A stretch of DNA of 64,000 bases from Mytilus trossulus (taxonomy: Eukaryota): positions 13,392,001-13,456,000 of the forward strand of contig NC_086380.1 of the NCBI RefSeq assembly GCF_036588685.1, in the 5' to 3' direction. A program made the position numbers and the translations under genes. Of this stretch, positions 17,772 to 60,489 are shown in pieces; the stretch's first letter is position 1; each line of letters begins with the position of its first letter. The notes beneath the pieces were generated by a model that worked only from the letters and a program-made list of their open reading frames with translations, had not been told where the DNA came from and searched no databases.

Positions 17772-18672
17772 CTGTAATAAGTTCTCTGGAAGGGTTTAAA
17801 GATCCTATTTCACATGTGGCACTTGTAAATTCAATGCATATACATTTTCAACTTGTTAAAATCAACTGTGCTATACTTAAGATACATATCTCTGTTCAGT
17901 TATGATTTTGTTGAGGGTCTATCGCATTGATGTAAATCTAAAATTGATTTTTTTAAATTCATACAGAATTGTTTTGATTTATGATAGCAAATGCCTATTG
18001 TAATAGATTATACTAAAGGTAAATAAACCCCAACATGAAGGTTTAAGTCAGGTCATACAACTATTGTGGTATATTTGTAATTTGTTGTGATTGGAAAATA
18101 AAAGCGTTCATGCAAACATCACAATCTTTTTATTCTTTCAATTTTATATAACAAATGCCATTAAAATTAAGAACAGAAAGTTCGTGCATATAAGTGCAAA
18201 AGATTGCACCATCTTCATGTTAAAGAATGGCATGTCCTTGTATATAATTCTTTCCTTATTAACTAATGCTTAATTTAATTTCCTTGCTTATGCGCTTTGA
18301 GCACGATTGCTTTTAACACGATATATATGAATTGATTAAGTTTTTATTCTGTTAAGATGAAAGAAATGTTTTTGATGTGAAGTAACCGGAAGAAGTCGCG
18401 TTACTTCATTGTTTTTGCAGTACGACCGCATGACAAAACGATAGATGTCATATTTGAGTTACAGTCATCAAAGCTGTGAATTTACGATAAAAATATGTAA
18501 AATATTATACTCAAGGACAAACCCTCAAGGTCATACTACTTTTTTCATAAATGTTTTACTTGTAGTGTGTTTGTTCCTGTTTCAAGACCATTCAATCATT
18601 GATACCAACATTATAATAGTTTTTATATTTTCAATTTAATATTAAAGATGGCCACTAGAATTCAGTAAAAAA

Positions 18673-25690: not shown

Positions 25691-25774
<84 letters not shown>
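25691..25774. repeat. (CT)n microsatellite, about 42 units
   Basis: Uninterrupted CT run. Confidence 0.99.
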
Positions 25775-28029: not shown

Positions 28030-30330
28030 AAATTTCAGTAGTATCGATAATACCTTAATTTCTGTAGCATCGATAATACCTTCATTTCAGAATCATCGAT
28101 AATACCTTAATTTCAGTAGCATCGATAATACCTTAATTTCAGTAGCATTGATAATATCTTAATTTCAGAAGCATCGATAATACCTTAATTTCAGTAGCAT
28201 CGATAATACCTTAATTTCAGAAGCATCGATAATACCATAATTTCAGAAGCATCGATAATACCTTAATTTCAGTAACATCGATAATACCTTAATTTCAGAA
28301 TCATCGAAATACCTTTAGTTCAAGCATCGATAATACCTTAATTTCAGAAGCATCGATAATAACTTAATTTCAGTAGCATCGATAATAACTTAATTTCAGT
28401 AGCATCGATAATACCTTAATTTCAGTAACATCGATAATACCTTAATTTCAGTAGCATCGATAATACCTTAATTTCAGTAACATCGATAATACCTTAATTT
28501 CAGTAACAGCAATAATACCTTAATGTCAGTAACATCGATAATACCATAATTTCAGAAGCATCGATAATACCTTAATTTCAGTAACATCGATAATACCTTA
28601 ATGTCAGAATCATCGAAATACCTTTAGTTCAAGCATCGATAATACCTTAATTTCAGAAGCATCGATAATAACTTAATTTCAGTAGCATCGATAATAACTT
28701 AATTTCAGTAGCATCGATAATACCTTAATTCAGTAACATCGATAATACCTTAATTTCAGTAGCATCGATAATACCTTAATTTCAGTAACATCGATAATAC
28801 CTTAATTTCAGTAACATCAATAATACCTTAATGTCACCTTTATTTCAGAATCATCGATAATACCTTAATTTTAGTAACATCGACAATACCTTCATTTCAG
28901 GATCATCGATATTATCTTAATTTCAGAAGCATCGATAATACCTTAATTTCTGAAGCATCAATAATACCTTAATTTCAGAAGCATCGATAATATCTTAATT
29001 TCAGTAGCATCGATAATACCTGAATTTCAGTAGCATCGATAATACCTGAATTTCAATAGCATCGATAATACCTTAATTTCAGAATCATCGATAATACCTT
29101 AATTTCAGAAGCATCGATAATAACTTTATTTCAGTAGCATCGATAATAACTTAATTTCAGTAGCATCGATAATACCTTAATTTCAGTAACATCGATAATA
29201 CCTTAATTTCAGTAGCATCGATAAGACCTTAATTTCAGTAACATCGATAATACCTTAATTTCAGTAACATCAATAATACCTTAATGTCAGTAACATCGAT
29301 AATACCTTTATTTCAGAATCATCGATAATACCTTAATTTTAGTAACATCGACAATACCTTCATTTCAGGATCATCGATATTATCTTAATTTCAGAAGCAT
29401 CGATAATACCTTAATTTCTGAAGCATCAATAATACCTTAATTTCAGAAGCATCGATAATATCTTAATTTCAGTAGCATCAATAATACCTGAATTTCAGTA
29501 GCATCGATAATACCTGAATTTCAGTAGCATCGATAATACCTGAATTTCAGTAGCATCGATAATACCTTAATTTCAGAATCATCGATAATACCTTAACTTC
29601 AGTAGCATCGATAATACCTTAATTTCAGTAGCATCGATAAAACCTTAATTTCAGTAGCATCGATAATACCTTAATTTCAGTAGCATTGATAATACCTTAA
29701 TTTCAAAAGCATCGATAATACCTTAATTTCAATATCATCGATATACCTTTGATTCAGAAGCAACGATAATACCTTAATTTCAGCAGCATCGATAATACCT
29801 TATTTCAGAAGCATCGATAACACCTTAATTTCAGTAGCATCGATGATACCTTAATTTCAGTAGCATCGATAATACCTTAATTTCATAGCATCGAGAATCA
29901 TCGATAATACCTTAATTTCAGTAGCATCGATAATACCTTCATTTCAGAATCATCGATAATACCTTAATTTCAGTAGCATCGATAATACCTGAATTTCAGT
30001 AGCATTGATAATACCTTAATTTCAGAAGCATCGATAATACCTTAATTTCAGTAGCATCGATAATACCTTAATTTCAGAAGCATCGATAATACCTTAATTT
30101 CAGAAGCATCGATAATACCTTAATTTCAGTAACATCGATAATACCTTAATTTCAGAAGCATCGATAATATCTTAATTTCAGTAGCATCGATAATACCTTA
30201 ATTTCAGTAAAATCGATAATCATACTTTAATTTCAGAAGCATCGATAATACCTTTATTTCAGTAACATCGATAAATGATATCTAGATTTCAGTAAAATTG
30301 ATAAATGTCTAAATTTCAGTAGCATCGATA
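28030..30330. repeat. Tandem satellite, 26-bp unit TAGCATCGATAATACCTTAATTTCAG, roughly 88 copies
   Basis: ATCGAT recurs every 26 bp (e.g. 28095, 28121). Both edges are degenerate. Confidence 0.97.
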
Positions 30331-33179
30331 AGATGTTGATATTGAGTAAAAGACAAATGTAAAGGGTAGTATCATTTTTAATTCTGCTAATGGAAATAAG
30401 GATTATAGTTATAATGGGACAATCATAACTGGAAAAAAAGAGATTCGATGACAGGACCTAAAACGATTTACCAAAAATAAATCTGAGCAACACGAATCCC
30501 AAAAACGTTTTCAAAAGTCTAATTTGTAACATTTAAATTTTATTTCTGTACTTGTGTACACTATAGGACTACCTATGTGAACTAGTCAATAAAGGTACAT
30601 TTTTATAGACTTTCTTACATTAAAGTGTATATTTTTGGATTAACTGATTGATTTTCTATAATGATATTCATGCAGCACCAAATTAGAAAAGTTCGTCCTC
30701 AATGTAGTCAAATTTATAAATTGATCTTTCTTATATTGCAGAAACGGATCATTATGCATGATCTTAATTATATAATAATAACAATAACACACTAGTGCAC
30801 CATTAACCTCTGCATCCATAAATTATATAACCTGTTGTTTCATTAATGTAGTTATTCATCATATACTGTATCGAAACTCAACACTATAGTGCAAGTCCTG
30901 CTCATATATGCGCACGGAAGTGCAAGTTTAATAAACCATAAATGTTAGATATAGGTTATAAAGTTAACTATGCAAAATAAAAGCTTTCTTTTTCAAGAAA
31001 AAATAGCACATTAAATTAAGTTGGTTTAGGTACATTGTATATCTACCATTTACTGGGATACAATTAAACAGCAACAAGTTCACAACTACGACCACGTACA
31101 TGTACTGAATGGTATTTTAGAATATAGAAACAAACCTCTATGCATTGCTATGTAAATTATAAAAGAATCTTAAAGCCAGACATCGGCTTACCAAGTGCAT
31201 TGTTTTTGTTTTATTGTCTTTCCAAAATCTCAGTCCATTCTGAACCTGCTGTGAATAATTTCAGAAGCAGAAACGGCCACGCGCACTGAGATAAGTATCA
31301 TACTTTAGGATATTTTTAGAACAATTATATCTTTTTAACGAAGCAGATTTTCAAAGCTGTCATTTTATTTATTTATTCAAAAGCAAATAATAATCAGAGG
31401 ATTATTGAAACATTCAGGTTTAAATTGTAACCACCATGCTAATCTTGTGCGAATTATCCAGCTTTACATTATATAATCTTACGCCAGAAACATGCACCAA
31501 GAAAATGTTCCCTGTATTTAACTATCCTTCTCTATCTATACTCAGATCTTTGATTAATCTAATAGCTCAGGACTAATTTCATTTCATCAAAAATAGCTGT
31601 CGAGGGAATATGTTTTCCAAAATTAGTTTACTTTGAATAAATCTTCTATATAATCTGCTATCTTTTGGCCTTTTCACCTATGTCAGTTTGTCAGTAATAT
31701 CAATAAGGAACTTTATAAGATTGAAAAATTCTAAATATTTTTATCCAACGTATCAAAGTGATGTAATATGATAGCTGCTTGGTCCTAGATTTTATCTCAT
31801 TCTTAACCATTCTAAACAGTAAGAGTAAATTTGATTAAATTTCTCTCGTGGAGCTACCCGCCATATCCATCGAATCGACTTAGAAAAACAGACACCACTT
31901 TAAACCGTTGACTACACTGTTTATCCACTCGGTAAACCTCGTATTTAATGTTAGAAAATTGAGCTCGAGTAGATATCGTACTGGGGGTTTTGGTAGAATA
32001 ATTGTATATATGTCTTAAATTGAGAATGAAAATGGAAAATATGTCAAAGAGACAACAACCCGGTCAATGAGTAATTAACAGCCGAAGGTCACCAAAGGGT
32101 CTTTAACGCAGCGAGAAAATTCCGCAAACGGAGGTGGGCCTCAACTGGCTTCTAAACAAAACCGTGTAAAAGTACAGTGAAAATGGACGTTATTTCAAAC
32201 TCCAAAATATACAAATAAAGAAAATGAAGAAATAAAGAGACTAAAAACAGGCGCAAAAATGCAGCGGGGATAGAACATGTTCAGACAATGCTAATATATC
32301 GGGGTCGAATGTGTTTTCGTGCTTTTTTTGTAACTTTTGAACATTTTACAATCGTTTCTTTTATTATCTTGTATTGTATTTTCGAGCAGCTAGACAATTA
32401 AATGATACTGTAAAAAATGATAATTTAAAACATCTCATTATTAATGAATACAGTATATGCTTTCCATATTAATTGATAAACAACAAATACAATACGAATG
32501 TATGTTTCACGAGATTGACATTTGCACATTCGATTCACATCAGAGATATGTTTATACATAATAAAGTTAATTATTCAATTAAAGTTTAATGACCCAGGTG
32601 CAACCTTTTGGAAAAAACAATTAAGTGATACATGACTTTTACCAGAAGATCCCTGACCTTTCTAGTTTAGGAGTAAGTTGCTTGTAAAAACAATATACAC
32701 ATCAGCATTGCTCAAAACCAGATGATACGTTTTAACAGTAAACACGTTTTTTTTCTTGTTCTACATTTATTTCGTTTATTGTTTTTGTTGCTTTTATTTT
32801 ATTCTAATCAATGTGTTTCAAAGTAACGTTTATAAAACGAAACTCAAAATAATTAAATTACTAGAAAAAGATGGATTTTGGCAACGGCAAAAATATTAAA
32901 TGACAATATATTTTTAACGACAAAACATATTATAAATTTCCTAATTTCTTTCGGAACTGTATACCCGTACACCAATGCGAAAACAGAACATATTTACCTT
33001 CAAGTTGAAGAGTTTGTTTATTAATACGCATTCGCCTGAACTATTTCTGGGGACCACGGGTCCTATTCGAGCGACAGAAACTTCCTTCTGCATACCGTAC
33101 ACAGGTTTTGATGAATGATTGAATTTCTATTTGCATTTGTTTTTACCTTTTATTTGTCTTCTGGTCAATGTTATTATAA

Positions 33180-33730
33180 AAAAGAAGATCTGGTATGATT
33201 GCCAAAGATACAACTCTCCAAAAGAGACAAAATGACACAAAAATTAACGGCTATAGTTCACCGTACGGCCTTCAACAATGAGAAAAGCCCATACTTCATA
33301 GTCAGCTATAAAAGCAACCAGAGGACAAATGTAAAACAATTCAAACTAGAAAAGTACCGGACTAATTACCAAAAAAAAAATGAACGAAAACAAACATATA
33401 ACACATCAACAAATGACAAACACTGCATTATAGGCTCCTGACTTGGGACAGGCACAAACGTGCATAATGTGGCTGGGATAAACATGTTAGAGAGATCATA
33501 ACTCTCCCCTAACCTGGGACAGTGGTGTAACAGTGCAACATATGAATGAACTATAAAAAAGCAGTTGAAAAAAGGTTTAACTCATCGGATGGCAACACAT
33601 AGACATACTTCACAGTGTGGACGTGGTCGGGTACTTGTATATCCCAACAACAAAAAGACACTAATTACAGACCTGAGAGTACTCGTAGTTAATGACAGCA
33701 CGTTCAAAGCCACTAACAGCTAATTAAAAA
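33180..33730 (+). repeat. Longest copy of dispersed repeat family A
   Basis: Shorter copies at ~1500, 6343(-), 9190, 13020, 22970, 23505(-), 51060 and 59162. Confidence 0.85.
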
Positions 33731-35442
33731 AATCATGCCTTTAAAACTAAATGCATTTTTCTTCAACATTTTTAAACACCGTTGGTATGTTATAATATTA
33801 GTATATGCACTCACATGCACACTTCAAGAATTTCTATGGAGAAAACCTAACCTTTAGATTTAAAAATTATAAGAATATGTATATTAATTTGTTTGAAACC
33901 CATAGTGGCTTGTCGTGAAATGCTTCTGTATACCCAGACAATTATTATGTTTATAAAGGCGCCATGCAGCAATATTATATGTCAATGAAAGATATCACTA
34001 ATATTATTTGTTTTTTTTTATAATTAATCATGATAAACAAAAAGTGACATATTTTATGACCTCTAACAAAAATATAGGATTTTTGTCAAAATTACGCAAT
34101 GCTTCTATGTCCGTTATAAAGAAAACATGGAGTAATGTCACGTGTTGATTGTCCTAATAAATTGATCTGACATAATTACTGGTATCCACGATATTTTAGG
34201 AGACTTGAAAATATTTGAAGCGAAATTAATCAACTAATGTCAACATATTATGTCAAAGGTTAACCTAACAGTCGGTAAGGAAAAATCACAATATCTATAA
34301 AAAAACATTACAGTTTAGAGTTCACACACTCTTTTCACGAAAGCTAACGGGAAAATGATTCAATCATTTGACAGAATAAAGCCTTAAATGGATATTGAAA
34401 AACAAAACCGTTTTGGACATACATGTTTGCAGTAATTTTTCAAGGCTAATATCTCCCTTGAGCAGCATTCATAGTTTAGACCCGATAGTATAATACAGTT
34501 TCGTGTGACATTCACAATTTAATATATAACTTCAATATTGTGTTTTGTGGTCTATCTATAATTGATCATTAATCTGTCGCGTACAAATCACTTAATTACT
34601 TAAAATAATAAAAATAAAAAACGAAATTTGATACAAAACTTGTTAAAACATGAAACTTAAAGCTTATAATAACACTTACAAAGTTAAAGCTGGAAAGTAT
34701 TCCAATATCAATCTTCACAAGATCACATAATGTTATATAATCATATTTCTCAGATTTCTGATTGTTTAATTGCAGAAGGAAATGCACAACGATGCGATGA
34801 ATTTATTACAATAATTAACAGAAATATTGGCTTATGATGATCATTTGTGATAATAAACAAACATAATATACATGTAATTAAGTGTAGAATTCAGAATCTG
34901 TAATGAACTATGTAAACATTTACAGAAATAGAAAATCAAAAGGGAAGTTAAGTATTTGAAAGAGCTTTACCTTTTCGATTGAGTTTGTCAATTGATGAGT
35001 ACTGATCAGAGTGATCATCTAATTTTATATAAGTTAAACTTTTTTTCTTTTATTTGCTATTATGGCATTAAACTATCTTGCATTTGTCTTCATGCTATTA
35101 GGTTTCTTTTTGTCTTTTGACGTTAGAGTGATTCGGTATGTATATAGTCCTATAACATATGACCTCGAGGCCATTATTTACTATTTCTATTTGCTGTTCT
35201 GATATATTTTTTTTACTTTCAATGTGCCACCGACAAAAATAAAAACAATAAAAATATCAGCATGGACATGTTAAATAGTGGTTATATAATGCGAAGGCAT
35301 ATATTATAGGACTAAGTATGTTTGCAACCCGCAAATGGGTTTTAACTTTTCAACTTTGAGCATTCTTTGTCCAATTCGGACACAAAGGGTTGTTTCAAAG
35401 TTGTTATATTTGTTCCTTGTAATTCATATCTACATAATTTCA

Positions 35443-35730
35443 TTTTGGATGTAACGCGTCTTCTGATTGCCTGCCGTTATTTTGTTATGAGCCAATAGAC
35501 ATAATTTAGTCATGTGACCGTGACGTCATCAACGTTTTTCATGGTTTTCTACTGTTTCAAATGGGATTGAGAATTAAATTATCAGAAAAGACTGTAATAT
35601 TTTTTTCGGTCTATTCAAAATAACATAAAAAATATGGTGCACTCTGTTAAATAACCCGCGTTATTCAGTGTGAACCAAATTTTATGTTATTTCTTCATAG
35701 ACTGAAAAAATATTACAGTCATTTCTTAAT
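35443..35730 (+). mobile_element. Palindrome-ended dispersed element (TTTTGGATGTAACGCGTCTTCTGATTG.. family)
   Basis: Hairpin GACTGTAATATTTTTT..AAAAAATATTACAGTC. Other copies at ~54722-54952 and ~49985-50090. Confidence 0.8.
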
Positions 35731-37607
35731 CAATTTATTTTTTTCGAGAAAGTGTATATCATATACGAGATGAACTACCAACGACGATAGTGTCAACTTC
35801 AAATAATATCTATTACATCTTTCTTGTTGGCATCATTGATAGATTAAAAATTTGTATAAAACAATAAGAAGATGAATGTTTGTTATAAGTTCGTTGTGTT
35901 GTAGGTCTGTGTTGTTCCTTTAAACATAGTTCTGACTGCTTTGTCCCTCTTCTTGTCCGAGTACCCCATTATGTCTGTTTGGGTAAGCCCTACACGCAGT
36001 TTAGTCAATATAACAGAATTATTAACAACTGTCACGCAAGTGGAAGGTTTAGCTAGCCATAAAATTAAAACAATCCACCATTTTATACGGCTGTGCCTGT
36101 AGCTAATCAGAAATATGGAAGTTGGTTTTCACCTGTTACTTTGATTGTTAGCTTTTAATTTTCTAAGTTTTTGTAGACTTCACACATTTTGATTTGCCCT
36201 TGAGTTCGTTTTATTGTTATAATTTTTCAGAGAAGAATTCATGATCTATACATTGTTTCTTTCTGTATTGTTTTGTTTCTTTTGTCGTGCTTTGTTTCGA
36301 TCTAATGAACACCTGTTCAAAAGACTGTGACTGTTATAGTTATTCTTTTTAATGTATTGGCGAAACTATTTTGCACCTAGCATACCTTTTTGTCTGTTTT
36401 GAAAAGGGGAACCCGTCCTGGTTTCCATGTCATGTTTTGTCAATTACTAGTTTTTTATGTCATTTTCAGTGCCAGTGTTCAGAGCTGATGGTATAGCTTC
36501 CATAATCTCATTTGGCATTATCAATATATTTTATAATCCTAAACAAAGAACTCATGTCGATAATAGACCAATAGACATATTATGACAGCAGACAAATCCG
36601 CTAAGAAAACTACAACACTTGAAAGCAGATGCTCGCAAACAAAAAAAGATGGTAGTCACTAAAAAAATGAAACTGAAGTCGGTTATTCCTGCTCTACCCG
36701 TATTCTATACATTCACCTGTGATTAAATTTTAGTTGTTTCTCTAGTACTATAGACATGTGTAAATAAGTGGTATTCATTTTTATGACTATGACACACATT
36801 TACGCCCGGAGTATCAGCTTTATATACATACAATAAATCTACATCGAATGCTAGTATTTTAGAAATGTCACTTATGCAAGTATTTCATCGTTCTTAATGG
36901 CACGGAAATAAACTAAGATATGTATAGTACAAATGTCACGTCAGTAACGGTAGACCACTGTTAGTTAGAATATAAGCTTTGACAAGTGTCAGTCCTGATA
37001 CGAGTTCCTCTCTTCATTCCACTGCAAAATTAATATGACTATGTTTTTTTCTTTCTAGAAACAGAAAGTTTGGCAGTAAAAGCATAAACAATGGAAAATC
37101 AGACATAACAAAATAATTAAAATGAACAAAAACCAATGTACACAAAAGCAGTAGCCATAAAACCTTATTCTAATCTCTACGAGGTCGATTTCACCCACCA
37201 AAAACGGGATAGAACTCCAAAATGGTAATCAGTTTTAAAATAGTTGTATCATATTGACAATTGTGTTGATATAGAGTTATATGACAATTTAACTGACATG
37301 ATACGTATTACTTCACAAGTTACTTTTTTGATGCGTTTGAAACTGAAAAAAAACCCCAAAGTATGTCTAAAACAACTACATAAATCTGAAAGGTGAAGGT
37401 ATAATAATTGATTATTGCCCCTAGAAGTTAAGAATAAAAGCATCGGCTATAAATCTATCAAATAATATTCTTCGGATAATTACAAGACATTAAATTTTAC
37501 AGATATAATGATCAGTCTTAGTATTTTTTTGTATTGCGGTAGATATTTGCCTCATCGCTGCCTTCTTTCATCAATTGGGAAAATCCACAGTAGCCTGAGT
37601 TTTAGAT

Positions 37608-37893
37608 AAACTCAGCATAAATACCGGGATTACAATTTCATATTTACGCAGACGCGCGTTTCGTCTACACAAGACTCATCAGTTTAGCTCGATTCCAAAA
37701 GAGTTATAAAGGCTAAAACAAGTACGAAGTTGAAGAGCATTGAGGACCAACATTCCTGAAAGTTTTGCCAAATACAGCTAAGGTTATCTATTCCTGAGGT
37801 AGGAAATCCTTAGTTTTTTCAAAAATGCAAAGTTTCTCAACAGATAATTTATAACTATGAACATATCGATGATAACTCAAGACAACACAGAAG
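37608..37893 (-). mobile_element. Family C element carrying a hammerhead ribozyme (Penelope-LTR/retrozyme-like)
   Basis: Absent from the paralogous unit near 45100. Homologous copies at ~42053, 50095, 51575 and 52670. Confidence 0.8.
37644..37690 (-). ncRNA. Minimal type I hammerhead ribozyme motif (core intact, stem I degraded)
   Basis: Minus strand reads CUGAUGA-GUCU UGUGU AGAC-GAAAC-GCGC-GUC. Confidence 0.8.
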
Positions 37894-38599
37894 TTGATGA
37901 CGTCATTATTCTTTAGATAATTTTCATGGAAAAGATACTAGTTTTTATCGTACCTTCTCCTTTGTCTAAATCCAATTTATGCATTCATCAAACTATGCAT
38001 TTAGTACAATGTTTTTCTTCAAATTTAATTTATCAAAGTAAGAATAATATTATTAAACTATTTGATTTGAAAACCACATCTAAAGTGCAGCAAACCAACC
38101 ATATTAATAGAAATAGAAACAGATATGAGAAGTGGATTATTTGCTAAAGTTAAATACATTTTCGATGGGGTGTGCCATATACGGAGAGTAAACTGCTTAG
38201 TGAACAGTAAACCGCCAAAACATTGTAAAATTGCCTGCACTGTTTGTATCAGTTGACGTTTTGAATTTTCTATTAAGCAGAAGGGTATTCCATATTAGCG
38301 GTTACGTTGTTCGAACACCTTTTTCATTCACTGTGAGTAATATTGATGCGGTATCTTCTGCAGTTATTTTCTTTGTGCTTGTGGCTTTGCTCCTTATTAT
38401 ACCATCATTACACAGTTGAATCTACTCTTAAATAACGTTCCGTCGTGCAAGTCTGTTGTCGTCCTGTTGTAGCTTGGAGGTGCATACTTTTTATTGTGTG
38501 TTTTATTTTATGACATATGGTATAGATAGGTCAAGAGGAGACTTTTTCGTAAGGAAAATTGATTTAAACCACCACATTATATGGAAGATCAGGTTAACT

Positions 38600-41237
38600 G
38601 GGACAATACCCCTAATGCGCCTTGAAATGAGGAACACAAAAGTCACGTGTAAACAAAAAATCTCTGTGTAGTGATATTTGACCCATTTCTATGATACACA
38701 AATAACTGAGCTGAACCATTAGTGTTAATTTAGAAAATAAGAGAACACAGAATAAATGTGTAAAAACCATGGAGCTATGAAATGTGTTCAAAGTATTAAA
38801 ATTTCAAAGAACTTATTGTGTTAAAATTGGGATTTTTTACCATGAGGAGCGACATCGCAAAAGGATACTCGGGGTTTGCTAAATTACGGAAAAATGAATC
38901 ACACTTCGTACCCCGAAAATTTAACCACATATGTAAAAATGTCTCAGCTTCGAAACAAGCCATCATACATATACAAGTTTACGATATGGGCTGAGCAACA
39001 GAAGAAAACGTTACCATTACGGCCTATGGAATAACAATTGCGCATATTGCCCCATCTTGTGAGAAAAAATCCAGAGATGTCTTAAGCTTATTTCACCTTG
39101 TACACCACAGAAAATTGTTAAAATGATGGTTAGTAGTTTTTTATTTATACCTAGTTATCATAAATGATTTCAGATAAATATTATTGATAAAGAACAGCAA
39201 AAATTCAATAAAATTTTCACTTTTAAATGCATTACTGGCACGGGGCTGAACACTTTTTTTAGGCACAGTCATAACTTTGTTTACCCCCGAGAGATCCGAA
39301 ATGAATTGTTTATTCAATTGAAAAAGGCAAGAAAAAACTTACATGTAATATAAATAAATTGTAAGTAAACATGACACAATATAGTCTTTGTTATGCAATT
39401 ATCACTCTGGTCTACAGGAATAGCTTATAATCAAGGGAGATAACACACTTCACACGAGTAAAGTGAGATACATCATACATGTGCTTTTATCCAATGATTT
39501 GACCCTGGTCAGTAGATATCATATGCAAATAAACAGAAAAAAAACATGTACATGTATGAAGAAAATCACGAATTACTATTGTTAATGCACATGAGCAAAA
39601 CACAAGATATTGTCATTTCTCAATGAAAAAGGGGGAGGGTCAAACCTTCTTGAACACAATATTGCTATTCAACTACATGTATTAAGCTAGTTAGCTACTA
39701 CTCATTGCTTCTAATATAAACAGTTTAAATGAAGGTGGCTAAGCCACAAGGGAGAAGCATTTTTCTTTCTTTGTGATAAAATTTTCAAGAATTAGATTTT
39801 TCTCTCTCAATAATACTTATGTATTTAAATTAAATGATAACACAGTTTGAGTTAATTTTTTTTGTCTTATTTCAGTTCCAGACATATCATTACTTTTAAA
39901 TATGAGATGACAAACTAAAGGTTTTAAAAAGTCCTGAATAACTGGTAAGCATTTTGATTTATTAGGTAAGCTCTAAATTATTTATTTATGGTATTTGTGC
40001 AAATGAAATTACAGTCGGTATGTTAGAAATATGCTTATATGAAAACTGTTGCTATATATGGTCTTGCTATTAAATGAAAAGGCTTGGTTACTGGTCTTTT
40101 CGACTCAACATTTCGAGTTAAATCTTGCGTCAACTGATTCTCATGTAACACTGCAAACTCTATTTAGCACTATTTTGATCTGTCATTATTTAATGACGCC
40201 ATAATACGTGTGATGTCATGTGGATTTCTCACTGATAAAGGGTTTTCATTGAAAAACATGTAAAAAGCCTTTTTTTCTCAAATAGAATTATGTGAATGGA
40301 CAAGTTTTGAAAATTTGTACTTCATTGCACTCTAATTACATGATAAGAATTACTTTCCCAGTAGTTTTGAGGGGTTTCCACAGTATTATATACCAGATGT
40401 CCACTAGTAAGAATAGTTATTTTGCTGGTGTTTTTTTTATGAAATCTACATTTTTGCATAATTTCTCTGTCAAAATGCACTTTAAGACACAAGAAAATGT
40501 TATAGAATGCTTTAATAGGGTCTGTGTATTGTTATTTAAGGTTATCATCAGAAGTTTTGTCCTTGTTTTGACTAGTAAAGGTATACTGGAAGAAATTAAT
40601 TATACATGCACGTTGTATTAAAAATAAATGAATATAGCGATAAAAGTGTCATTGCCATATAGTGCTGAAATGACTTTATTTTTTTTCAGAAATGGACAAA
40701 AATACACAGATTTATTCAGAATGTCATACCGATGAAGATCACCTAAAAATATTTGGAAAAATCAGAACTATGGATTTCAATATGGGACAATACCCCTAAT
40801 GCGCCTTGAAATGAGGAACACAAAAGTCACGTGTAAACAAAAAATCTCTGTGTAGTGATATTTGACCCATTTCTATGATAAACAAATAACTGAGCTGAAC
40901 CATTAGTGTTAATTTAGAAAATAAGGGAACACAGAATAAATGTGTAAAAACCATGGAGCTATGAAATGTGTTCAAAGTATTAAAATTTCAAAGAACTTAT
41001 TGTGTTAAAATTGGGATTTTTTACCATGAGGAGCGACATCGCAAAAGGATACTCGGGGTTTGCTAAATTACGGAAAAATGAATCACACTTCGTACCCCGA
41101 AAATTTAACCACATATGTAAAAATGTCTCAGCTTCGAAACAAGCCATCATACATATACAAGTTTACGATATGGGCTGAGCAACAGAAGAAAACGTTACCA
41201 TTACGGCCTATGGAATAACAATTGCGCATATTGCCCC
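38600..41237. mobile_element. Composite element: two 454-bp direct repeats (38600-39053, 40784-41237) around 1.73 kb of cargo, AACT TSD
   Basis: Repeats differ at only two positions seen by eye. Each has imperfect GGGACAATA/TATTGCCCC ends. AACT at 38596-38599 and 41238-41241. Confidence 0.85.
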
Positions 41238-44200
41238 AACTCTCTGAACCGTGTGAAGTTCATTGTCGTTGTTTTTTAGTTTGTCTGTTTTCGGTTGAGT
41301 CAGGTGTACATGTTGTTCGTGGGGGTTGTCGAATGTACTTTCCAATATTTTGTTAATAAGTTGTATTATTTTTTTCTCTGTATTCTTATTTTACGCAGGT
41401 TCTTTTGTGATACTTTATCGAGATCAACTTGCTGGAAACTGGTTTGCTTTACAAGATTAGTGGGCAGACGATCGCAAACCTCTGTGAAATACAGTAAGAC
41501 AATAGACAAATCATTACAAAGTATAGGGAATTCGGTTATTTCTGCCTCACCTGTATTATTATATCTTCATAAGTGAACCCGATTTTTGTGACTATGACAC
41601 ACATTTACGCCCTGCAAATCAGCCGTATATATGTACAATAAATCTTCATCGAAAGGTAGTACTCATGGAATGTCACGTATGCAAGTATCTCATCGTTTTT
41701 TTTTATATTATTCTAAATATCATACATTCACTTAAAAAAGCTTAGATATGTGCTGACAAGTGTCAAGTATGTTAACGTATCCATGAACTGGCATTTGACT
41801 ACTGCTAATAATCAATGAACTTTGACAACTGCAAGTCGGATGGAGATATGTGTTCTTTTTCGTTTTAATTTTCACAGCTAAAAGTTATCATAATTATACA
41901 AAAACTAGAAAAGATACAAGGTAGACAGTACAAACAAAGGACAATTGAGCAACAGACATTTGAATGAACAAAAGGAAGAAAGTCGAATACAAAACAGTAG
42001 ACATGAACTAAACTTTGATCACCACGATTCCTCAATCCAAAAACGGGGTAGATAGTTATCAAAGGTATAAGTCTTATAATTTAATACGCCAGACGCACGT
42101 TTCGTCTTCATAAGACATATCAGTTACGCCTAGATCAAAAAAGTTATAAAGCCATCAAGTACAAAGTTGAAGGGCATTGAGGAACTATGAAATGTCAGAA
42201 AATTTTAACTAGTTTTACTATATTGACAATTGTGTTGATTATAGAGGTATATGACAATCTAACTAATTTCATACGTTTCGCCTTACTCGTTACTTTTCTT
42301 AATGTGTTTGAAACTGAAATTTACCCAAAGCGTGTATAAACAGGCTTTATAAATATATAAACGGAAGATATGTCCAGACCACTTAATGGCTCATGGAACT
42401 TAAAAAATGAAAAGCATCGATTTAAATAGCAAAATTATCTATAAAAAAACACCCTTCAGATATTTACAAAACATTTGATCCGACAGATTTTATGATCATT
42501 TTATATATCTTTTAATTAAACGTTAAACGTTTGCCTTTTAGCTTCTTTCTTCCATTGGTTGGAAAACTTCTACAGTAGCTTGATCTTTTTTTTTAGATAT
42601 TTCATTAATGTTTAGATAAATTTCACTATCATTTGACTATTTACAGGTGCCACATATGAAACAGGAGCTGCTTACCCTCCCGGAGCAATTGCGATCATCT
42701 TCTAGTTTTTGGTGGGGTTTGTGTTGCTTAGTCTTTAGTTCTCTATGTTGTGTCGCGTGTAATATTATTTCTCTGTTTGTCGCATATTATATACATAATC
42801 ACATTAATATTGTTAAAAAATGAACCGTATAGCTTATAGAAGCAAACATTTACAAAGTCAAAGCTGGGAAGTATTTCAATTTCAATCTTCAGACGTTCAC
42901 ATAATGTGATATGATAAGATTTCTCAGATTTCTGATGACTAAATGGAAGAGGAAATGCACAGTGATGCGATGAATTTATCTCAATAGTTTTAGAGTAATA
43001 TTGGCTTATCATTTTGTGATAATAAACAAACATAATATATATGTAATTAAGCGTAGAATTTAAAATCCGTAATGGTCTGTGTCAGCATTTACAGAAATAT
43101 AAAAGCAATTCAAATGGGAGGTTAATTATTTGCCAGAGTTTTACATTATCGGTTGGATTTATAATTTACAGAGTGTAAACTTCTAAGTGGACAGTAAACC
43201 GTCAACACATGGTGAAATTGTTTGCCAGGTCTCACGGCCACAAAACTTTCAAGCATGTTTTTTACTCAGACTCGAAAATCAACCATTCAAATTGCTCGAT
43301 TTCATTTTTCGAGCATGATTTTTGTGCTCAGTGCATTGAGCAAAGTTTTATGCCTTCAAGGCCAGAACTTTGATGTTTTGACTCTTTTCTAGATCACAGC
43401 TACCAATATCAAGATTACAGGACGGTATATTTTAACATGTGTGGTTTAGTTGTTGAATTCACTTTTTATTCACTGTTTATTTTTGTTTATACGTTTTTAG
43501 TTTTTGTTTTTTATTATGTCATTATAATTAAGTTGGCTCTGCTTTCAAATATCATTTTGTCGTTCAAGACTGTAGTCATCCTATTGTAGCTTGAATGTGA
43601 ATAATTTTTATTGTGTTTCATTTTTATGACATATGGCTTAAGGAGGACTTGTTCCTGACGAAAACTGTTATACCCCTTCCACATTTTATATAGATACATA
43701 GTCACACTATCGGACTCGTGTGCTGTGCATTGGTTATAGTTTCGGAAGATTCTGGTGGTTGTGGTCGAATGTACTTTCCAATACTTTGGAAGTTATAGTA
43801 ATCTTTAGTTGTATCATTTTTACTTACTGATTCTAATTCTACAGGAATTCTTTTGTGTAACTTAATCGAGATTGACTTGCGGGATAATCTCTAAACTGGT
43901 TTGCACTACAAGATAAGACAGCAGTCAATCGCAAAACTCCGCAAAAGACGATAGACGATAAACGAATCATTACAAACTGAAAGTAAAATCGGTCATTCTT
44001 CCTTCAAATATATTATACATATTCACATGTGATAACCTTGTAGTTCCGCTAGTACTACATGCATTTTGAACATGTATAAAAACGTGGTACCGATGTATTG
44101 GTCTATTGTTTTTTTTTTTCACACACATTTTCGCCCTGATTACCAGCCTGATATGCATAAAACAAATCAACATCAAAGGGTAGTATTTTTGAAATTTCAC

Positions 44201-45827
44201 TTATGCGGGTATCTTCTCGTTTATTTGACACACGCGTTCTTAATTGCAAGAAAATAAACTAAGATATGTACTGTACAAATATCAACTCAATGATATCTGT
44301 AACGTGTGAATATCAGTATACCCGGTATTATCATTGAACTAGTATATATTTGTTTCGGGGCCAGCTGAAGGACGCCTCCGGGTGCGGGAATTCTCGTTTC
44401 ATTGACGACATGTTGGTGACCTTCTGCTGTTTTGTTTTCTATGGTCGGGTTATTGTCTCTTTGATACATTCCCCATTTCCATTCTCGATTTTATCACTCT
44501 TACTACGAATATACAATTTGACAACTGTGAATATAGATAGGTGTTCTCTTCGTTATTTCACAGCAAAGTTACCATTTATTTATAATTTTTGAAAAAGAAA
44601 AAGCATGAAACAATGGAGAATCAGACCAGTTGATGAACAAAAAAAACCCAATCACACAAAAACAGTAGTCATAATACCAATCACCACTAATTCACCAACC
44701 AAAAAAACGGGGTAAAATTCTGTTATGGTCAAACTATTTGAACTAGTTTAACGGTATTGACAACTGTGTTGATAATAGAGTTATATGACAATTTAAATAT
44801 AAACACTAGTTACTGTTGATGTGTTTGAACTAAAAATAATCCGAAGCATGTATAAACAGACTTAATAGATCTGAAAGGTGAAGGTATAATAATGACACTT
44901 TATGGCCCCTAGAACTTACGAATAATAAGCATCGATTGTAAATCGATCAAATACTACCCTCGAATAATTAAAAAGACATTGGATTTGACAGATATCATGA
45001 TCTGTGTTTGTGGTTTTTTTTTTATTTTGCTAGCTGTTTGCCTTATGACTTCTTTCTTTTATTAATTTAAAAACTTCCATAGTACCTTGTTGTTTTAGAT
45101 GTTGTCATTAATCTTTAGATAAGTGTCAAGGGCTAGATATGAGTTTTTATAGTACCTTCTTATTTGGCTAATTCCAATGTATGCATTCATCAAACAATGC
45201 ATTTTATAGAACAATTTATTTTTCTTCAAATTTTAATAATTAATCAAGGTAAGAATATTTTACTATACTACTAATATTGAAAACCAAATACAAAGGGCAA
45301 TTCACGAACGCTACAAAGCAAAAATATAAGAAAGTGGACGAGAAAAAGTACCAGTTCATACTTTTTTTTGCTTAATAATACAGATATGGTCAGACACATG
45401 TTTTGAAATTTACTAAGGAGTCTTCCGCCTTTTATACTTCAAATAAATTGCGATACTTTGGCGACTGGACATGCTTGATGCAGAATGCATGTTACTGCAG
45501 ACAGTTTTGAAATCAGAAATAGATTATGCGTGGTATTTATAGTTTCTGGTGCTTTCCATTTTGCCCTTTTTGAAAAAAGATTAAAAAAAGTAAGAGCAGT
45601 TTAGCTAACACGTAAAGTCCTCACCAGAACACTTATAGAGAAATATAAGCAAATTATATTACACGTTAATTCCTGAACAGAACGCTTATAGAGTTGATTT
45701 AATTTTCATTTTCAATAAAACGATATTTAAATGTGTTCTTATAAAAACAAATGACTAAAAGTCGTTATTTTATATATCCAAATGTAGAATAATTAGGTGA
45801 CTATGTTCTGGATTATGCATGTGATCA

Positions 45828-45961
45828 TGACGTAATAAATGTTATTTGCATATCATGTGACTAATTCCTTCATTTCTCATGTAAATTCTTCCTGACGTAA
45901 TAATGTAATTTGCATATCATATGACTATTTTCTTCATTTCTCATGTAAATTCTTCCTGACG
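45828..45961. repeat. Two tandem ~65-bp units, each with TGACGTAA and the octamer ATTTGCAT
   Basis: TGACGTAA at 45828 and 45893. ATTTGCAT at 45844 and 45908. Confidence 0.85.
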
Positions 45962-48900
45962 CTTGTTATGAGTGCAATTTATATATATCACGTGACACGT
46001 TTTCTGAACTAACTAGCTAATCTGCTCGTCTTTTTTTTCCTTATTTTTTCTTCTTCATTAAAGCAAAATGGTCAGCATAAAAAACAGTAAATACAACACA
46101 AAAGCAACACGTAATGTTCTGAAAGTACACTTATAGAATTGATTTAATTTCATTTTCAATAAAACAAATATTCAAATATATTTTCATAAAAACAATTGAT
46201 GAATACTATAACTAACACAAAGTCTTCAGAGTTTGGACTAACTATTGGCAAAAGGCACTTTTTTATGACATTAACACTTTAACGTAAATCATTAGTGTGT
46301 TTTGTGGTCTACCTGTCTTGTCTCATATTATAAACGATCATACAAATTGTATATATCGCATATAATATACCTAATAACATTTGTTAAATATTGTTAATAA
46401 ATGAAAATTATAACTTATAAAAGCAAACACTTACAAAGTTAAAGCTGGAAAATACTCCAATATCAATCACACAATGTTATATGTTCATATTTCTCAGGTT
46501 TCCGATTATTAATTGCTGAAGGAAATGCACAGTGATGCGATGAATTTATCTCAGTAATTTTAGGGTAATATTGGCTTATCATTTTTTGTAATAATAAACA
46601 AACATAATAGACGTGTAATTGAGCGCATAATTTAGACTCAGTAGTACACTTTGTAAGTATTTACAGAAATAGAAAGGAAATTGGAAGTTATTTATTTGCA
46701 AGGTTTTTACATTTTTGGTGGGGTTTGTCATGTAAAGAGTGAAAAATAAACTGGCAAAAACATTGAAAAGATGTCTGAATTGAAAAAACAAAATGAACGT
46801 GAATTCGGTTATTCCTACTTCACCGATATCCTATATATTTATCTGTGATTACATTGTAGTTACTCTAGTACTATAAACATGTGAACATAATTGATACCGA
46901 ATTTTGCGACTATAACATATAGGGCGTAAATGTGTGTCATAGTCACAAAAAATGAATATAAAATGAATCTACATCGAATGCTAGGATTTGCGCAATGTTA
47001 ATTCTGCAAGTATCTCAACGTTCGTTTGACACAAGCGTTTTTTACATACAAGGACATACAATAAGATATGTCCAGTACAAATGTCAAGTCGGTGATATCT
47101 TTAACGTATGAATACTGGTATACCACTGTTATTAAGAATATGCACGTTGACACTTGTCCTTTCATATACTAAAATGTGTTCCTTTCGTTACTTCACAGCA
47201 AAGTCACCATAAATTTTGTGTGAACAGATGCAAGGTGGGCATAAATAGCATAAGGCACATGTGGATAAACAAAGGAAGAAAGACGAAGAGAAAAGAATAC
47301 GAAAGACATAATATTTAATTTGCATCAAAACTAATCCAACTAAAAACATGATCGAAACAGTCAGAAAATTGAATTTTATTGTACCATATTGATAATTGTG
47401 CTAAAATTAGAGATAATTTAATAACAAAACCGTCCTTAGTCCAATCGTTTACAGATTGTTCGTTATCCTGCTCTTCATTTGAGTTAATGGGGCATACTTA
47501 TGTGGAAGCAGACAAAAGAAAGCTGATTATTACATCAAATAGTAATATCATATTTTTTAAGACTCCTAAAACATGCTTCAACAAAGTCAGTGTATTCGTA
47601 GATAGTAGATGTGTTTGTGTTCTGTTAAATTGTTCCCTGTAAAATTGTTATACGATGATGAATGATGTACCCATATTTAGACTATTTTAATCATTGTGTC
47701 TGTTTAATTTACGCATCAATGTAAATAAAACGGAATTTGACGAGACTGTTATTAAAGTGAGAGGGTTAGCGCTATTGAACCAGGTTTAATCCACCATTTT
47801 CTACATTTGAAAATGCCTGTGCCAAGTCAGGAATATAACAGTTCTTTTTCATTCGTTTTTGATGCGTTTTGTTATTTGATTTTGCCATGTCATTACGGAC
47901 TTTCCGAATTGATTTTCCTCTAAGTTCAGTATTTTTGTGATTTTACTTTTTAATAGTACCAATGCATCAGATTAAAAAAGTGTATGTATATAACAACAGA
48001 CAAAACAGAACATGTGTCACATGGTAAGGCGGACTCAGATGAAGCTTGGTACCAATAAAAATGCTCTTATTTTTAGTTGCTAAGTAAATTTGACGAAAAA
48101 AGTATTTTACATGTCGAAAAAAACCCAAGTATGAGACAAAAACTCTGTTGATTAGTAACAATAATAAAAAAAATAGTCGCGCATAATAAGTAACTAATAA
48201 AGAGTTTTGATTTGTAGCTTAAAAATGTGACAAAGATATGTTGAGCTTTAAAGCTTGTTGATCGTGACCTAAAACTGAAAAGCTTTTAATTTTTTTATTA
48301 CATTTAATTGAAAATAAAACAAACTGTTTAAAAGCTATACGAAGGCCACAATATATAAAAAAAGAATATAATGAAAAGAACATATCTGAGGTTAGATTTT
48401 TGTCTATATACTAATCACCTGCAAAACACAATACTTACTTATTCTGACACCGATATAGATGTACCTGTCGATTACAATGTATAGCCAATTATGATTGCGG
48501 GGGAGAGATAAGTATGCATAATAATAATCATCATTCTGGCATGTAATGTTAAACATACCACCCTGGCTGATCTTCAAATAGATTAAAGAACTAACCTAAA
48601 ACATTTAGATAGGTAAGTAAGATGTAATGATCCAGTTTGTTGGTGAAGGAAATATATAATGGTTAAAAAGTGAAGAAAAGTAGTATACAATGAAGCTATA
48701 ATCCCTCTTAAAATTAGAAAATGTGAACAAACATCAAGGTTCACTTAGGGCATAAAAACACCTATAAGTTTCAGCTTTATTATAAAATTTGAAACTGACA
48801 TATTTGGTTCTTAACTGGAACTATTTCAAAAGCAATACTACTTTTTTAAAATAAATCTCTTCATAGAAGTACATATGGCTTCAAAATTTGTACATTTTGA

Positions 48901-50124
48901 CCAATTTGTCAAAAAAGAAGTTTAAAGTAAATGCGAGTACTCTTAGAACTACATATTGTGTACTATGTCTTTTTGCTTTTTTTGTACTTCATACCTGATG
49001 ACTCGACGTATTTACATCTGATTTAACATTTTAGTTTTACGTTGTGTTGTTACACCACTGTACGAAATTTAAGCGTTCTGAACTTGCATTATCTAATATT
49101 GGAATCAGTAATTCAGAGTTTGATGTTTATTGCTGTGTATCATAATATGTTTTTTTTTTATCATATATATTATATATTGCACGAAGCAAGATATCCTATA
49201 AAGGAATAAAAAAAACAAATACAACTGGTCATAATGCAAAGGAAAATCAGCAAAACATAATGAAATCAATTTGGTCAAGAATATTACAGTTGCCATCCAT
49301 TCGTTTGATGTGTATGAGCTTTTGACATTTGATTAGGGACTATCCTTTTTGAATATCTCTCGGAGTTCAGTGTTTTTGGAGTATCATGTTGGTCATTCAT
49401 TCCATGTTGAATATGTCTAAGTAATGCTGATGTATCAATGAGTAATGCACTGAGCTAGTAACACTCTTCGAATGCTGATTTGTTTTCAACAAATGTAAAA
49501 GTAATTTGTCGTAGACGACCAGACAATATCATGACAAGAAAAAACGACGACCAACAATTTAAGCTTCAGGCTACGACCTACTTCAAATAAAACTTAAGAT
49601 AACACAATTTAAATCCACAATAAATCGGATAGCGTGGCGAAGTTAATGTTTCGTTTAAAACAATCGGTACTAACAGAATAGGATTAAATGTCTGCAATTG
49701 TGATGGGTGTGAAAGTTCTGTTATGTATACGATAAATAATTGATCTCTATTTATCTATTGTTCTATTACGATTGAAATTGCCATGGGACTATTTTGTGTG
49801 TTCTTCAATTAACCCTTGTCATTCTTTTTTGTCATTTCAATGAAATTTCACTGTAAGCACAAAAGACAAGCTAATCAGTCTGATAATATGTTGTCTATAT
49901 GCATAAGTTTGGATTAACTATTTAGGGCATGGTTATAAGAGTACGAATGAAAACGTACAAATGTGGGTAGAATTTTGGGTTTAAAATGTGGTGCACACTG
50001 TTAAATAACCCGCTACGCGCGTTATTTACTGTGCTTCAAATTTTTTATGTTATTTCTTCATAGACAGACAAATATTATAGTCATTCCTTTATTTGTTATC
50101 AAAAGTACCAAGATTATAATTTAG

Positions 50125-50170
50125 TATGCCCGACGCGCGTTTCGTCTACCTATGACTCATCAGAGACGCT
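50125..50170 (-). ncRNA. Minimal type I hammerhead ribozyme motif (core intact, partial stem I)
   Basis: Minus strand reads GCGUCU-CUGAUGA-GUC AUAGGUA GAC-GAAAC-GCGC-GUC-GGGCAU. Confidence 0.8.
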
Positions 50171-52955
50171 TATATCAAAATAGTTATAAAGCCAAACAAG
50201 TAAAAAGTTGAAGAGCATTAAGGATCCTTTAAATAACTTTCTTTGTCTTTATATACTAGTATATATCATAGTCTACCCTTGGGTTCGGAATGGAAAAGAG
50301 TCGATACCGATATCTTCTATTGACCTGAGTCGGTACATTTGTTAGAGACATGTTGCAAAACATCATATCCAACTTATTATATTTTCAGTAGCAGTTTAAA
50401 CTTCTTTGGCCTCATAAGTTAAATCACCTTTGAAGAACCTATATTGGTATTATTGATCGATTGTCATTTTAAACTTGTATTTTTGCAAAATTATGGTTTT
50501 TGGTTTATTCATCAATATTGCAGTGTTTAAAGCAACTATTATTATAATTCAAAAATAAAACTTACGCTTTCTCAGTATTTGATTTAGTGGTTGGAGGAAG
50601 GGCGTTTATATATTCGTTTTTGTGTGTACATGTTGAGTTTCTCCCCTAATGAATCTTACACTTGTTAAAAAATGCCTTTTTTATAACATAAACATTTGAA
50701 ATTAAACATTGCACTCGCTAATGATAAGTAATTTCATAGGGTTCTTAAAATGAAACATGTTCTTTCAGGATTAATTTTATGAAAAATAATTGCTCAAATA
50801 TATAAATGCGGCAACACTATGGGTATAATTATAGCAATTAATCACTCTGCACTCTAAAGTGTCTTAAACATTAGATCTATTTAATTTTCTTATGTTAGAT
50901 GTTCAATTAATTTTTACAAAAATAGATATAATTTTAGTTTATAATTCTAATTCCCTCATGAGGAGATTACTACTCTAAATAACTATGAGCTAAACTTGAT
51001 TCAGTATTATATTAAACTTAAATGTGTTTTAAGCAATTAAATCGAAGACAAAATATAAAAAAGAGAAGATGTGGTATGATTGCCAATGAGACAACTATCC
51101 ACAAAAGACCAAAATGACACAAACATTATCAATTATAGGTCACAGTACGGCCTTCAACAATGAGCAAAGCCCATACGGCACATAGTCAGCTATAAAAGGC
51201 ACCGATAAGACAATGTAAAACAATTCAAGCGAGAAAACTAACTGCCTTGTTTATTTAAAAATATGAACGAAAAACAAATATGTAACACATAAACAAACGA
51301 CAACCACTGAATTACATGCTCCTAGTCAATGGAGGACCAAATTGAACAAAACATTTTATGGCTTAATAATATATATGTAAAGACGTTTTAACAGACCTCA
51401 CACATATGTTTCATTGAAGCTAAAGACAACTAAAATGTTATGAAAAACACAGAACTTATACACAATCCCGATGCACGCTTAAGGACAACCATAATCTAAT
51501 CAATATATTAATTAAAATGATAAATTCTCATGTCAAGAGGTAAAAATGTGCCTGATTATCGGCCAACTGTTTTGATAACTCATCATAGATACCAGGATTA
51601 CAGTTAATACTTACGCCCTCGCCCGTTTCGTATTAAAAAAACTCATCAGTGACGCTGGAATAAAAAAATGTAAAAAAGGTCAAACAAAGAACGAAGTTGA
51701 AGAGCATTGAGGACAAAAAATTCCTTAAGGTTTTGCCAAATACAGTTAAGGTAAATTATTCCTGAGGTAGAAAAGCCTTAGTTTTTCAAAAATATCAAAG
51801 ATATTTTTAACCGTTTATTTATAATTATGAAATTATCAAGTTCTGACTCATCATGCTCATGGGCTAATGCTATTAACTTGTAATATACGATTTTAGATTA
51901 CACACGGTATGCATTGTTGTACCTTCTTCATTGATAGGCTTAGATCACAGCAATAGCTTCATACAATAATTTTTATATGAAATATGTCTGTATTCAATAG
52001 AAAATGTGGGGTTTTGTTAAAATAAATAGCTTTACAGTAAACATATCAGGTATTTTCATAAAAAAAAAAGATCGAGCTTGCATGCTAGTTAAATAAGCGT
52101 GTCACTGTTTCTGAATTCCTGTTGTGTCTGCCATTGATTGAATATGTTGGTTGTTGTTCTGTTGTTTGCATGTTGTGTCGACTATAACATAATATGTTTG
52201 TGTGCGTTTCTCAGTGATATTTGTCCTTACGTGGGTTTGTGCTGTATTTCTATCACGTAGTATTGTCATTTACGCGATATTGTTTTAACATTGTCATAAA
52301 ACGGCAAGTTTAGCTAGCCAATAAACCAGATTTTACCACCAGTTTTTTTCTTTCTATAAATGTCTGTACCAAGTCTGGAACACGGCAGTTGTTGTCAAAT
52401 AGATCGGTTATATGTATGTTTGCGTCTTGGTTTTTTGCACTTCAGTTTTCATGTTGTCCCTTTGTTTCCTTCTTATAGTTGATGTGTTTTTTCTTGGTTT
52501 TAGTTTGTAACCCGGATTTATTTCTCTCACTCAATTTATGACTTTCAAACACCGGAATACTTCTGTTATATTAATATACAACACAGATGATCGATTTTCA
52601 TATACATGATCGGTTTGTGCGCACGTACGTGTACATGTAAATAAAAGTCACCAACATTACCTTGCTAATAATTGTGTACGCCAGACGCAAGTTTCATCAA
52701 CAGAGAACATACGATAGATGTTTGAAAACATGTAAATGAAACGCCATATTGAAGAGCATTTAGGAGAAAAAATCCGAAAGCCAAATAAAGACAGCTACGA
52801 CTATCTATTCATTGGGAGAAATAACATTGTTTGTACTAATTCATCCTATCTAGAATGACAAAAATCTTTAAAAGATACAGAAACAATAAAATATCTCTCT
52901 TCAGTACTGAATTCTCCAAATACTCAAGAAATACAAATTGACGGGGTTTAACTAG

Positions 52956-60326: not shown

Positions 60327-60489
60327 AGATTCTTACATAGTTACTCGTGGATTATCGGATTTATCCAATCTCGATAGTTAAATTATAAATTTTAAAGTCC
60401 TCGCCGAGGCGTCTCGGACTTTAAAATTGATAATTTAACTATCTCGATTGGATAAATCCGATAATCCACTGGTATCAATGTAAGAATCT
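60327..60489. repeat. Long imperfect palindrome (163 bp)
   Basis: AGATTCTTACAT..GTGGATTATCGGATTTATCCAATC / GATTGGATAAATCCGATAATCCAC..ATGTAAGAATCT, centred on CCGAGGCGTCTCGG. Confidence 0.92.

Follow-up and report, generated by a model that had tools for sequence, protein, structure and literature searches.

The five minus-strand hammerhead copies in the 64,000-nt stretch of DNA analysed here (hereafter the window) are, as we read them with reasonable though not strong confidence, 5′-truncated and mostly decayed insertions of what is likely a mussel retrozyme, laid down by Penelope-type reverse transcription that would have begun some 45 nt beyond the point of ribozyme cleavage, on circular RNA. 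A permissive BLAST search, with a natural stretch of the outside tandem locus L002 as query, placed minus-strand copies of the family in exactly five places in the window (Table 1), all on one strand and within 15 kb. The window is AT-rich animal-type DNA (31% GC) rich in dispersed repeats, and no host gene accounting for the common strand was found among 117 of the 122 frames of at least 52 codons beyond 30.4 kb, which yielded just a weak DUF and a piece of a Tc3 transposase. The pieces are 130–290 bp long and 62–86% identical to parts of the L002 unit, with c37 at 79.7% over 290 columns and c50 at 85.7%.

Table 1. Copies of the hammerhead family in the window, their ribozyme cores and the empty sites of two insertions.
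Feature	Position	Strand	Remarks
c37	37608..37895	-	288-bp 5′-truncated retrozyme piece, subfamily B
c37 core	37651-37682	-	intact; stem I broken (2/6 pairs)
c37 predicted cut	between 37651 and 37650	-	
c42	42053..42181	-	129-bp piece, subfamily A
c42 core	42092-42123	-	CUGAUAU; 2 catalytic positions changed
c50	50095..50227	-	~133 bp, subfamily A
c50 core	50132-50163	-	intact; stem I 5/6, stem II 3/4, stem III 2/2
c51	51575..51837	-	~260 bp, subfamily B; 5′ end uncertain by ~25 bp
c51 core	51618-51649	-	GUC triplet lost; stems II and III damaged
c52	52636..52810	-	old degenerate piece; core 52684-52715 at 7/12
c37 empty site	45098..45100	+	single GAT
c37 second empty site	42596-42598		
c42 empty site	37212..37213	+	single GA; also empty near 44714 and 47300

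All five copies claimed in the preliminary description of this DNA exist where it placed them and in the core states that it gave. The two cores reported as intact, those of c37 and c50, agree with the hammerhead at 12 of 12 core positions each; the core called mutated, at ~42090–42123, and the one said to have lost its cleavage triplet, at ~51615–51650, where GUC is replaced, each keep 10 of 12; and the copy near ~52685, described as degenerate, keeps 7. The copy c37 combines its intact core with a ruined stem I, a feature missing from that description. Copy c42 retains 5, 4 and 2 pairs in stems I, II and III, but has a dead core, and the stem I count of 1/6 obtained for c51 in a fixed register is too low, since a one-base loss moves the register. 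The 5′ end of c52 is uncertain, as a permissive alignment extends to 52873 at 62% identity. The window copies are mostly dead or decayed, and at most one of them, c50, could plausibly still fold, to judge by its letters.

A descriptor combining core and stems recovered two sites in the window against none in each of 100 random sequences drawn from a dinucleotide model. The remaining 8 of 11 loose CUGANGA..GAAA matches in the window, including one at 8945–8966, fail this stem descriptor and lie outside the family. The core and helix III letters equal the consensus of the Rfam model Hammerhead_1 (RF00163), and the scores of 24–33 bits fall under its gathering score of 34 bits, with matches at 50126–50169 (31.1 bits, E 0.001) and 37646–37689 (24.3 bits, E 0.18) in the window and values of up to 33.3 bits in outside copies. 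The full core (CUGANGA / GAAA / UH, 12/12) is present in c37, c50 and five of eight outside copies, and is degraded in c42, c51 and c52. On the evidence of its helices, the motif belongs with the canonical metazoan type I hammerheads and not with the minimal ones, because intact copies (L002a, L002b, L004 and L005) have helices I, II and III of 6, 4 and 2 bp (at best 5, 3 and 2 in the window, in c50), and the part of PMC4209133 that defines these classes gives the canonical motif a helix I of 6 bp, a helix II of 4 bp and a helix III of 1–2 bp with a palindromic loop, and the minimal hammerhead no helix III, a helix II of 7–8 bp and a helix I of 4–5 bp. The term minimal used earlier is thus wrong by the published definition, while the proposed stem I, GCGUCA/UGGCGU, is fully paired in the outside copies L002a, L004 and L005. 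Nor is the suggested cleavage as a dimer needed: in the mussel experiments presented in the main text of PMC7229834, the construct Mg353, a cloned 353-nt monomer, is cut as a single motif, co-transcriptionally and at ~0.1 per min, and the mussel motifs are described there as being without most of the nucleotides of the loop 1–loop 2 tertiary contact.

Differences among the five window copies were no rarer in the core (9/60) than in the flanks to a significant degree (101/430, p 0.19, a flank figure inflated by subfamily differences), nor after leaving out c52 (4/48 against 64/344, p 0.10), as is expected of dead copies. When contigs were mapped to one unit chosen as reference by an exact ribozyme match, one of the 40 variable sites listed fell in the ribozyme, in loop II, with other stretches equally invariant. 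Minimum-energy folds of c37, c50 and L004 contain no hammerhead; such folding commonly misses the hammerhead fold and is uninformative for the motif.

Copies outside the window came from a scan of metagenome contigs (five loci) and a scan of prokaryote genomes (three loci, one a real copy). Two of the latter, L007 and L008, are chance 20-mers in DNA of 68–69% GC and were dropped; the third, L006, is genuine and sits in an AT-rich stretch within a cyanobacterial bin, probably as contamination. Pattern scans of viral contigs gave no match. The locus L002 consists of ~2.4 head-to-tail units with a cut-to-cut distance of 355 nt and 39% GC, and no ATG frame of at least 30 codons starts inside the array, an 83-codon frame entering from the flank. 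No tandem copy occurs within the window. On the 40 nt 3′ of the cut, the copies fall into subfamily A (c42, c50, L002, L003a, L004, L005 and L006) and subfamily B (c37, c51, L001 and L003b), with c52 too decayed for firm placing. In two DNA runs from different organisms 78,678 and 58,743 contigs map to one unit, as do 631 and 487 in two RNA runs, in whose libraries DNA may be present, and both DNA runs and one of the RNA runs have joints that lead back 343–354 bases. The retrozyme family is very abundant and present in RNA libraries, contigs being blind to whether an RNA is circular.

Animal non-LTR retrozymes have repeats of 150–450 bp with one type I hammerhead per unit; L002 has head-to-tail repeats, a single type I hammerhead in each unit, no coding capacity and a GC content below 50%. 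The elements described earlier as short and dispersed are indeed dispersed, but are really 5′-truncated pieces of a longer, tandem 355-nt unit, and their assignment to the non-autonomous hammerhead retroelements of the retrozyme class is borne out by that non-coding unit together with two clean insertions. The family is very probably the known Mytilus non-LTR retrozyme of PMC7229834, matched by description and not by letters, because unit length, the presence of two families, tandem form and host all agree; the earlier suggestion that it may be uncharacterised is therefore probably wrong. According to that main text, Mytilus galloprovincialis carries ~5000 type I hammerheads in two similar families, mostly in repeats of 350–390 bp, to be set beside the 355 nt found here, a length taken from L002 and hence from subfamily A, the unit length of B not having been seen. 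A reverse transcriptase (RT) fragment at 12289–12438 in the window is 87–88% identical to three proteins, two of them named Mytilus edulis, which makes a Mytilus mussel the probable source of this DNA.

All 11 dispersed copies (five in the window, six outside) share sequence to a point +37 to +52 past the cut and then diverge, with ends taken from pairwise extension, x-drop ends being unreliable for subfamily B, while the two tandem L002 units continue beyond this boundary. The six outside copies were picked by an exact ribozyme pattern, and their 3′ ends played no part in the selection. Leaving aside copies truncated by a contig end, the 5′ ends lie between −47 and −249; c37 follows the unit for 249 nt upstream and enters the hairpin of the preceding repeat, and no dispersed copy has the stretch from +45 to +105. 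Among the mapped pieces listed, a small selection of the mapped contigs, 14 of 32 start at L002 positions 250–266 (+34 to +50) and 9 of 32 cross the boundary; 3 of 16 listed RNA pieces cross it at +45. Depth rises 4–7-fold at the boundary in all four runs, a rise that is confounded because the reference unit has seven private changes shortly after this point. Since 5′ truncation and a fixed 3′ end are common to all target-primed elements, and a LINE-type RT fragment lies at 18646–19500, the copies might instead belong to a SINE-like element moved by the reverse transcriptase of a LINE, which would start at the 3′ end of a linear transcript. We consider this very unlikely, because the 3′ end of the copies falls within a unit that goes on in tandem copies, and neither a poly(A) or simple-repeat tail nor a long duplication was found at the two mapped insertions. 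Still less credible is a scatter of satellite fragments at the DNA level, through recombination, extrachromosomal circles or capture at breaks: the microhomology-like junctions at both mapped sites and the confinement of five copies to one strand and 15 kb would suit it, but the truncation is strand-asymmetric, and the chance that 11 of 11 3′ ends fall within 16 nt of a 355-nt unit is, as a rough figure, ~1e-12.

Strong folding is confined to one part of the unit, immediately beyond the boundary: a long stem with a cUUCGg hairpin from +48 to ~+135 (−40.4 kcal/mol, z −3.8; windows z −2.4 to −3.3). Folded as a circle, the entire monomer does not exceed shuffled sequences in stability (z −0.7). 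At all seven sites where the second unit of L002 departs, the family majority has the folding letters (85–99% of depth, run X1), and two listed variable sites in the hairpin stem keep pairing as G-U. The predicted stem-loop domain (+48..+135) is conserved, and it is lost from all dispersed copies. Neither a fixed 3′ end nor a priming domain is described in the main texts of PMC7229834 and 10.64898/2026.07.22.740005 or in excerpts of PMC7761336 and a 2019 preprint; supplements and repeat databases could hold one.

The region from 34.5 to 47.5 kb is made up of three to four diverged paralogous units, which supply empty sites for c37 and c42; mapping of insertions is limited to these two, the other three copies being without a paralogous site in the window. 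The c37 insertion is missing at both paralogous sites and that of c42 at all three, which upholds the earlier claim that two copies are independent insertions. Copy c37 is flanked by a GAT duplication (37605–37607 and 37896–37898; 3 bp) and c42 by GA (42051–42052 and 42182–42183; 2 bp), the latter a duplication or microhomology, and these 2–3-bp duplications may partly be microhomology with the element. GIY-YIG nucleases, as known from I-TevI, leave a 2-nt 3′ overhang, which two-base duplications would fit. The main text of PMC7229834 treats target duplication as optional and gives it, when present, as more than 4 bp, longer than the 3 bp and 2 bp observed here. Both mapped targets read TCTA in the direction of the element. 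Of the eight template bases that follow, the nicked end could pair with 7 at one site and 6 at the other (background 0.14% and 1.3%), values that come from two sites with a register picked afterwards, c37 being scored against the template of the other subfamily; we regard this end–target pairing as a weak lead, and one unlike the Poseidon element PAc of Anolis.

Because the copies span the cut site, while cleaved linear RNA would end there, the template had an intact cut site, and from the letters of the copies would have been either a ligated circle or an uncut multimer. Were it an uncut linear multimer of the same family, with the same internal start, the ribozyme and the circles would be bystanders to mobilisation. 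We hold this to be unlikely, although such copies need only an intact site and not a circle, and although in PAc, as reported in the main text of PMC11167929, hammerhead mutants left insertion unaffected and unprocessed RNA was the dominant substrate. Against it stand the mussel data, in which co-transcriptional monomer cleavage is accompanied by abundant circles that make up most retrozyme RNA, linear forms accounting for under 5% to 25% (main text of PMC7229834), and the finding that the ribozyme segment is the highest-depth bin in all four runs, as would follow from its being the best-conserved part.

Under initiation on a circle, the course of events may be pictured as follows. Tandem arrays elsewhere would carry the whole unit, as seen in L002, and their transcripts would self-cleave after GUC and be ligated into circles, as published for Mytilus galloprovincialis and assumed by extension here. 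A GIY-YIG/RT protein could then nick AT-rich DNA, at TCTA in both mapped cases, bind the stem-loop domain at ~+48 to +135 and prime immediately 5′ of this domain, perhaps with the aid of a few base pairs that the nicked end forms with the RNA. Copying would proceed back over the sealed cut site and through the hammerhead; if it stopped early, pieces of 130–290 bp would be left, and continued copying round the circle would give tandem arrays. The pieces are predicted to be dead on arrival, because they hold a single ribozyme and no stem-loop domain, and to decay neutrally, which fits what is seen.

Penelope-like elements (PLEs) were proposed as the mobilisers of retrozymes by Cervera and de la Pena 2020 (main text of PMC7229834), and Xenopus retrozymes are presented as sister to PLE pseudo-LTRs (pLTRs) in the main text of Li, Clavereau and Pollet 2026 (10.64898/2026.07.22.740005). 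A broken PLE-type RT with an inverted part occupies 11.2–14.1 kb of the window. Tested as a candidate partner, it proved to have no DNA in common with the unit and no CUGANGA. Its relatives have no C-terminal nuclease and carry a basic block upstream, and by these features the remnant appears to resemble the Naiads as described in PMC8557442. Neither the window nor the outside loci yielded a PLE with sequence in common with the unit, and the window and six loci gave no ORF with RT and GIY-YIG domains joined to a hammerhead repeat.

That the pieces are ordinary 5′-truncated pseudo-LTR tails of an autonomous Penelope-like element, and not a separate retrozyme, is improbable in our view. A fixed 3′ end with a variable 5′ end is a PLE signature in PMC11167929 and PMC8557442, retrozymes match pLTRs in Xenopus, and c42 and c50 are too short to tell; but the head-to-tail units of L002 follow one another with no RT frame, c37 runs back into the hairpin of the previous repeat, the ribozyme is canonical and not of the minimal PLE type, and the 117 frames scanned of the 122 beyond 30.4 kb include no RT.

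The retrozyme papers cited here do not settle what primes the RNA or which enzyme copies it. With a fixed start ~45 nt past the cut, beside a conserved folded domain that truncated copies lose, retrozyme circles would be tied to Penelope-like internal initiation in a testable way, and the geometry would explain why dispersed copies are dead ends and tandem copies sources. If this is true, dispersed truncated copies record the RT start on the circle, and the domain offers a handle for finding the partner protein. The broader proposition, that the circles of animal retrozymes bear an internal priming signal of Penelope type, consisting of a conserved ~90-nt domain from ~+48, and that the nicked end pairs with the eight bases next to it after a 2-nt staggered cut, seems to us an evenly balanced one. 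The retrozyme class, a mussel family and their connection to PLEs are in print, and the family seen here is most likely that published one, so that the value of this DNA beyond the known family is a modest mechanistic lead on the priming site.

Compared with the Mytilus galloprovincialis retrozyme of PMC7229834, as its main text describes it, the family is alike in its probable mussel host, two type I families, tandem arrangement, GC content below 50% and absence of coding capacity, and its 355-nt unit lies close to the 350–390 bp repeats and Mg353; it differs in that the window has only truncated single pieces with 2–3-bp duplications, and the fixed 3′ end and downstream stem-loop domain are absent from that main text. 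With the minimal hammerheads of PLE pseudo-LTRs (Cervera and de la Pena 2014, PMC4209133) it shares type I topology, a palindromic helix III region and dispersed multi-copy occurrence, whereas those motifs are without helix III and have a helix II of 7–8 bp, against 6, 4 and 2 bp here. For vertebrate non-LTR retrozymes, the main text of 10.64898/2026.07.22.740005 likewise sets out tandem masters with dispersed monomers seen as non-transposing offspring and proposes a PLE partner; that study sampled no mollusc and counted full-length monomers only, and its main text does not analyse ends or the priming site. The closest parallel for priming is PAc (Frangieh et al. 2024, PMC11167929), which in that main text nicks AT-rich DNA and begins reverse transcription inside its RNA at an AC-rich stem-loop downstream of the hammerhead cut, with genomic ends falling on RT start sites and uncut RNA as template. 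The two are alike in a fixed end past the cut beside a stem-loop, AT-rich targets and a template with an uncut site. PAc, however, is autonomous, starts ~85–92 nt past the cut inside its ORF and needs no target homology, whereas the family here would start ~45 nt past the cut, is non-coding and possibly uses short pairing with the target.

The five hammerhead copies, probable 5'-truncated pieces of a retrozyme, all lie on the minus strand and are confined to 15 kb (37608-52810) of the 64-kb window. Calculated after the fact, the probability of so short a span arising by chance is 0.013 and that of a shared strand 0.06. No host gene that would account for an orientation bias was found among the open frames scanned beyond 30.4 kb (117 of 122). 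The region 34500-47500 comprises three to four diverged (67-80%), non-coding-looking paralogous units, and includes a recent 459-bp duplication (38599-39057 versus 40783-41241, 99.3%). Splice-like signals (AG and GTAAG) are conserved on the plus strand in some blocks of these units, but reading frames in those blocks are not conserved.

Two scans recovered copies of the 355-nt retrozyme unit outside the window. An additional unit fragment lacking the ribozyme occurs in the metagenomic contig L001 (2015-2078), where it follows the 3' end of the first copy after ~30 bp and shares its orientation. A copy of this animal repeat was also observed at 182-275 of L006, a contig from the genome bin of an uncultured cyanobacterium; its presence there probably reflects contamination or a chimera.

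The window holds several other repeats and transposon fragments (table below). A second dispersed repeat family, which lacks a hammerhead, is also found in L001 and in a further metagenomic contig, L003. Weak Rfam microRNA matches in the window are attributable to the palindromic hairpins.

Other repeats and transposon-derived fragments in the window
Feature	Position	Strand	Evidence
LINE-type reverse transcriptase (RT) fragment	18646-19500		Pfam RVT_1, E 8e-5
Tc3-type transposase fragment	63488-63694		Pfam HTH_Tnp_Tc3_2, E 4e-4
Penelope-like element (PLE)-type RT remnant, first piece	12223-12438	+	
PLE-type RT remnant, inverted piece	12234-11759	-	
Minisatellite, 28 bp, 31 copies	190-1065		
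Minisatellite, 26 bp, 88 copies	27972-30349		
(CT)42	25691-25774		
Palindromic MITE-like hairpins	3442-3545, 4696-4853, 9823-9919, 35584-35726, 60327-60489		
Second dispersed repeat family	6340-6540, 13017-13157, 23060-23690, 33175-33440, 51051-51323		

A broken PLE-type RT remnant occupies 11185-14084, within which no hammerhead was detected. It contains a 570-bp inverted repeat (arms 11185-11756 and 13533-14084, 92%) that itself harbours short ACGCGT-rich repeats. The remnant appears to be Naiad-like.
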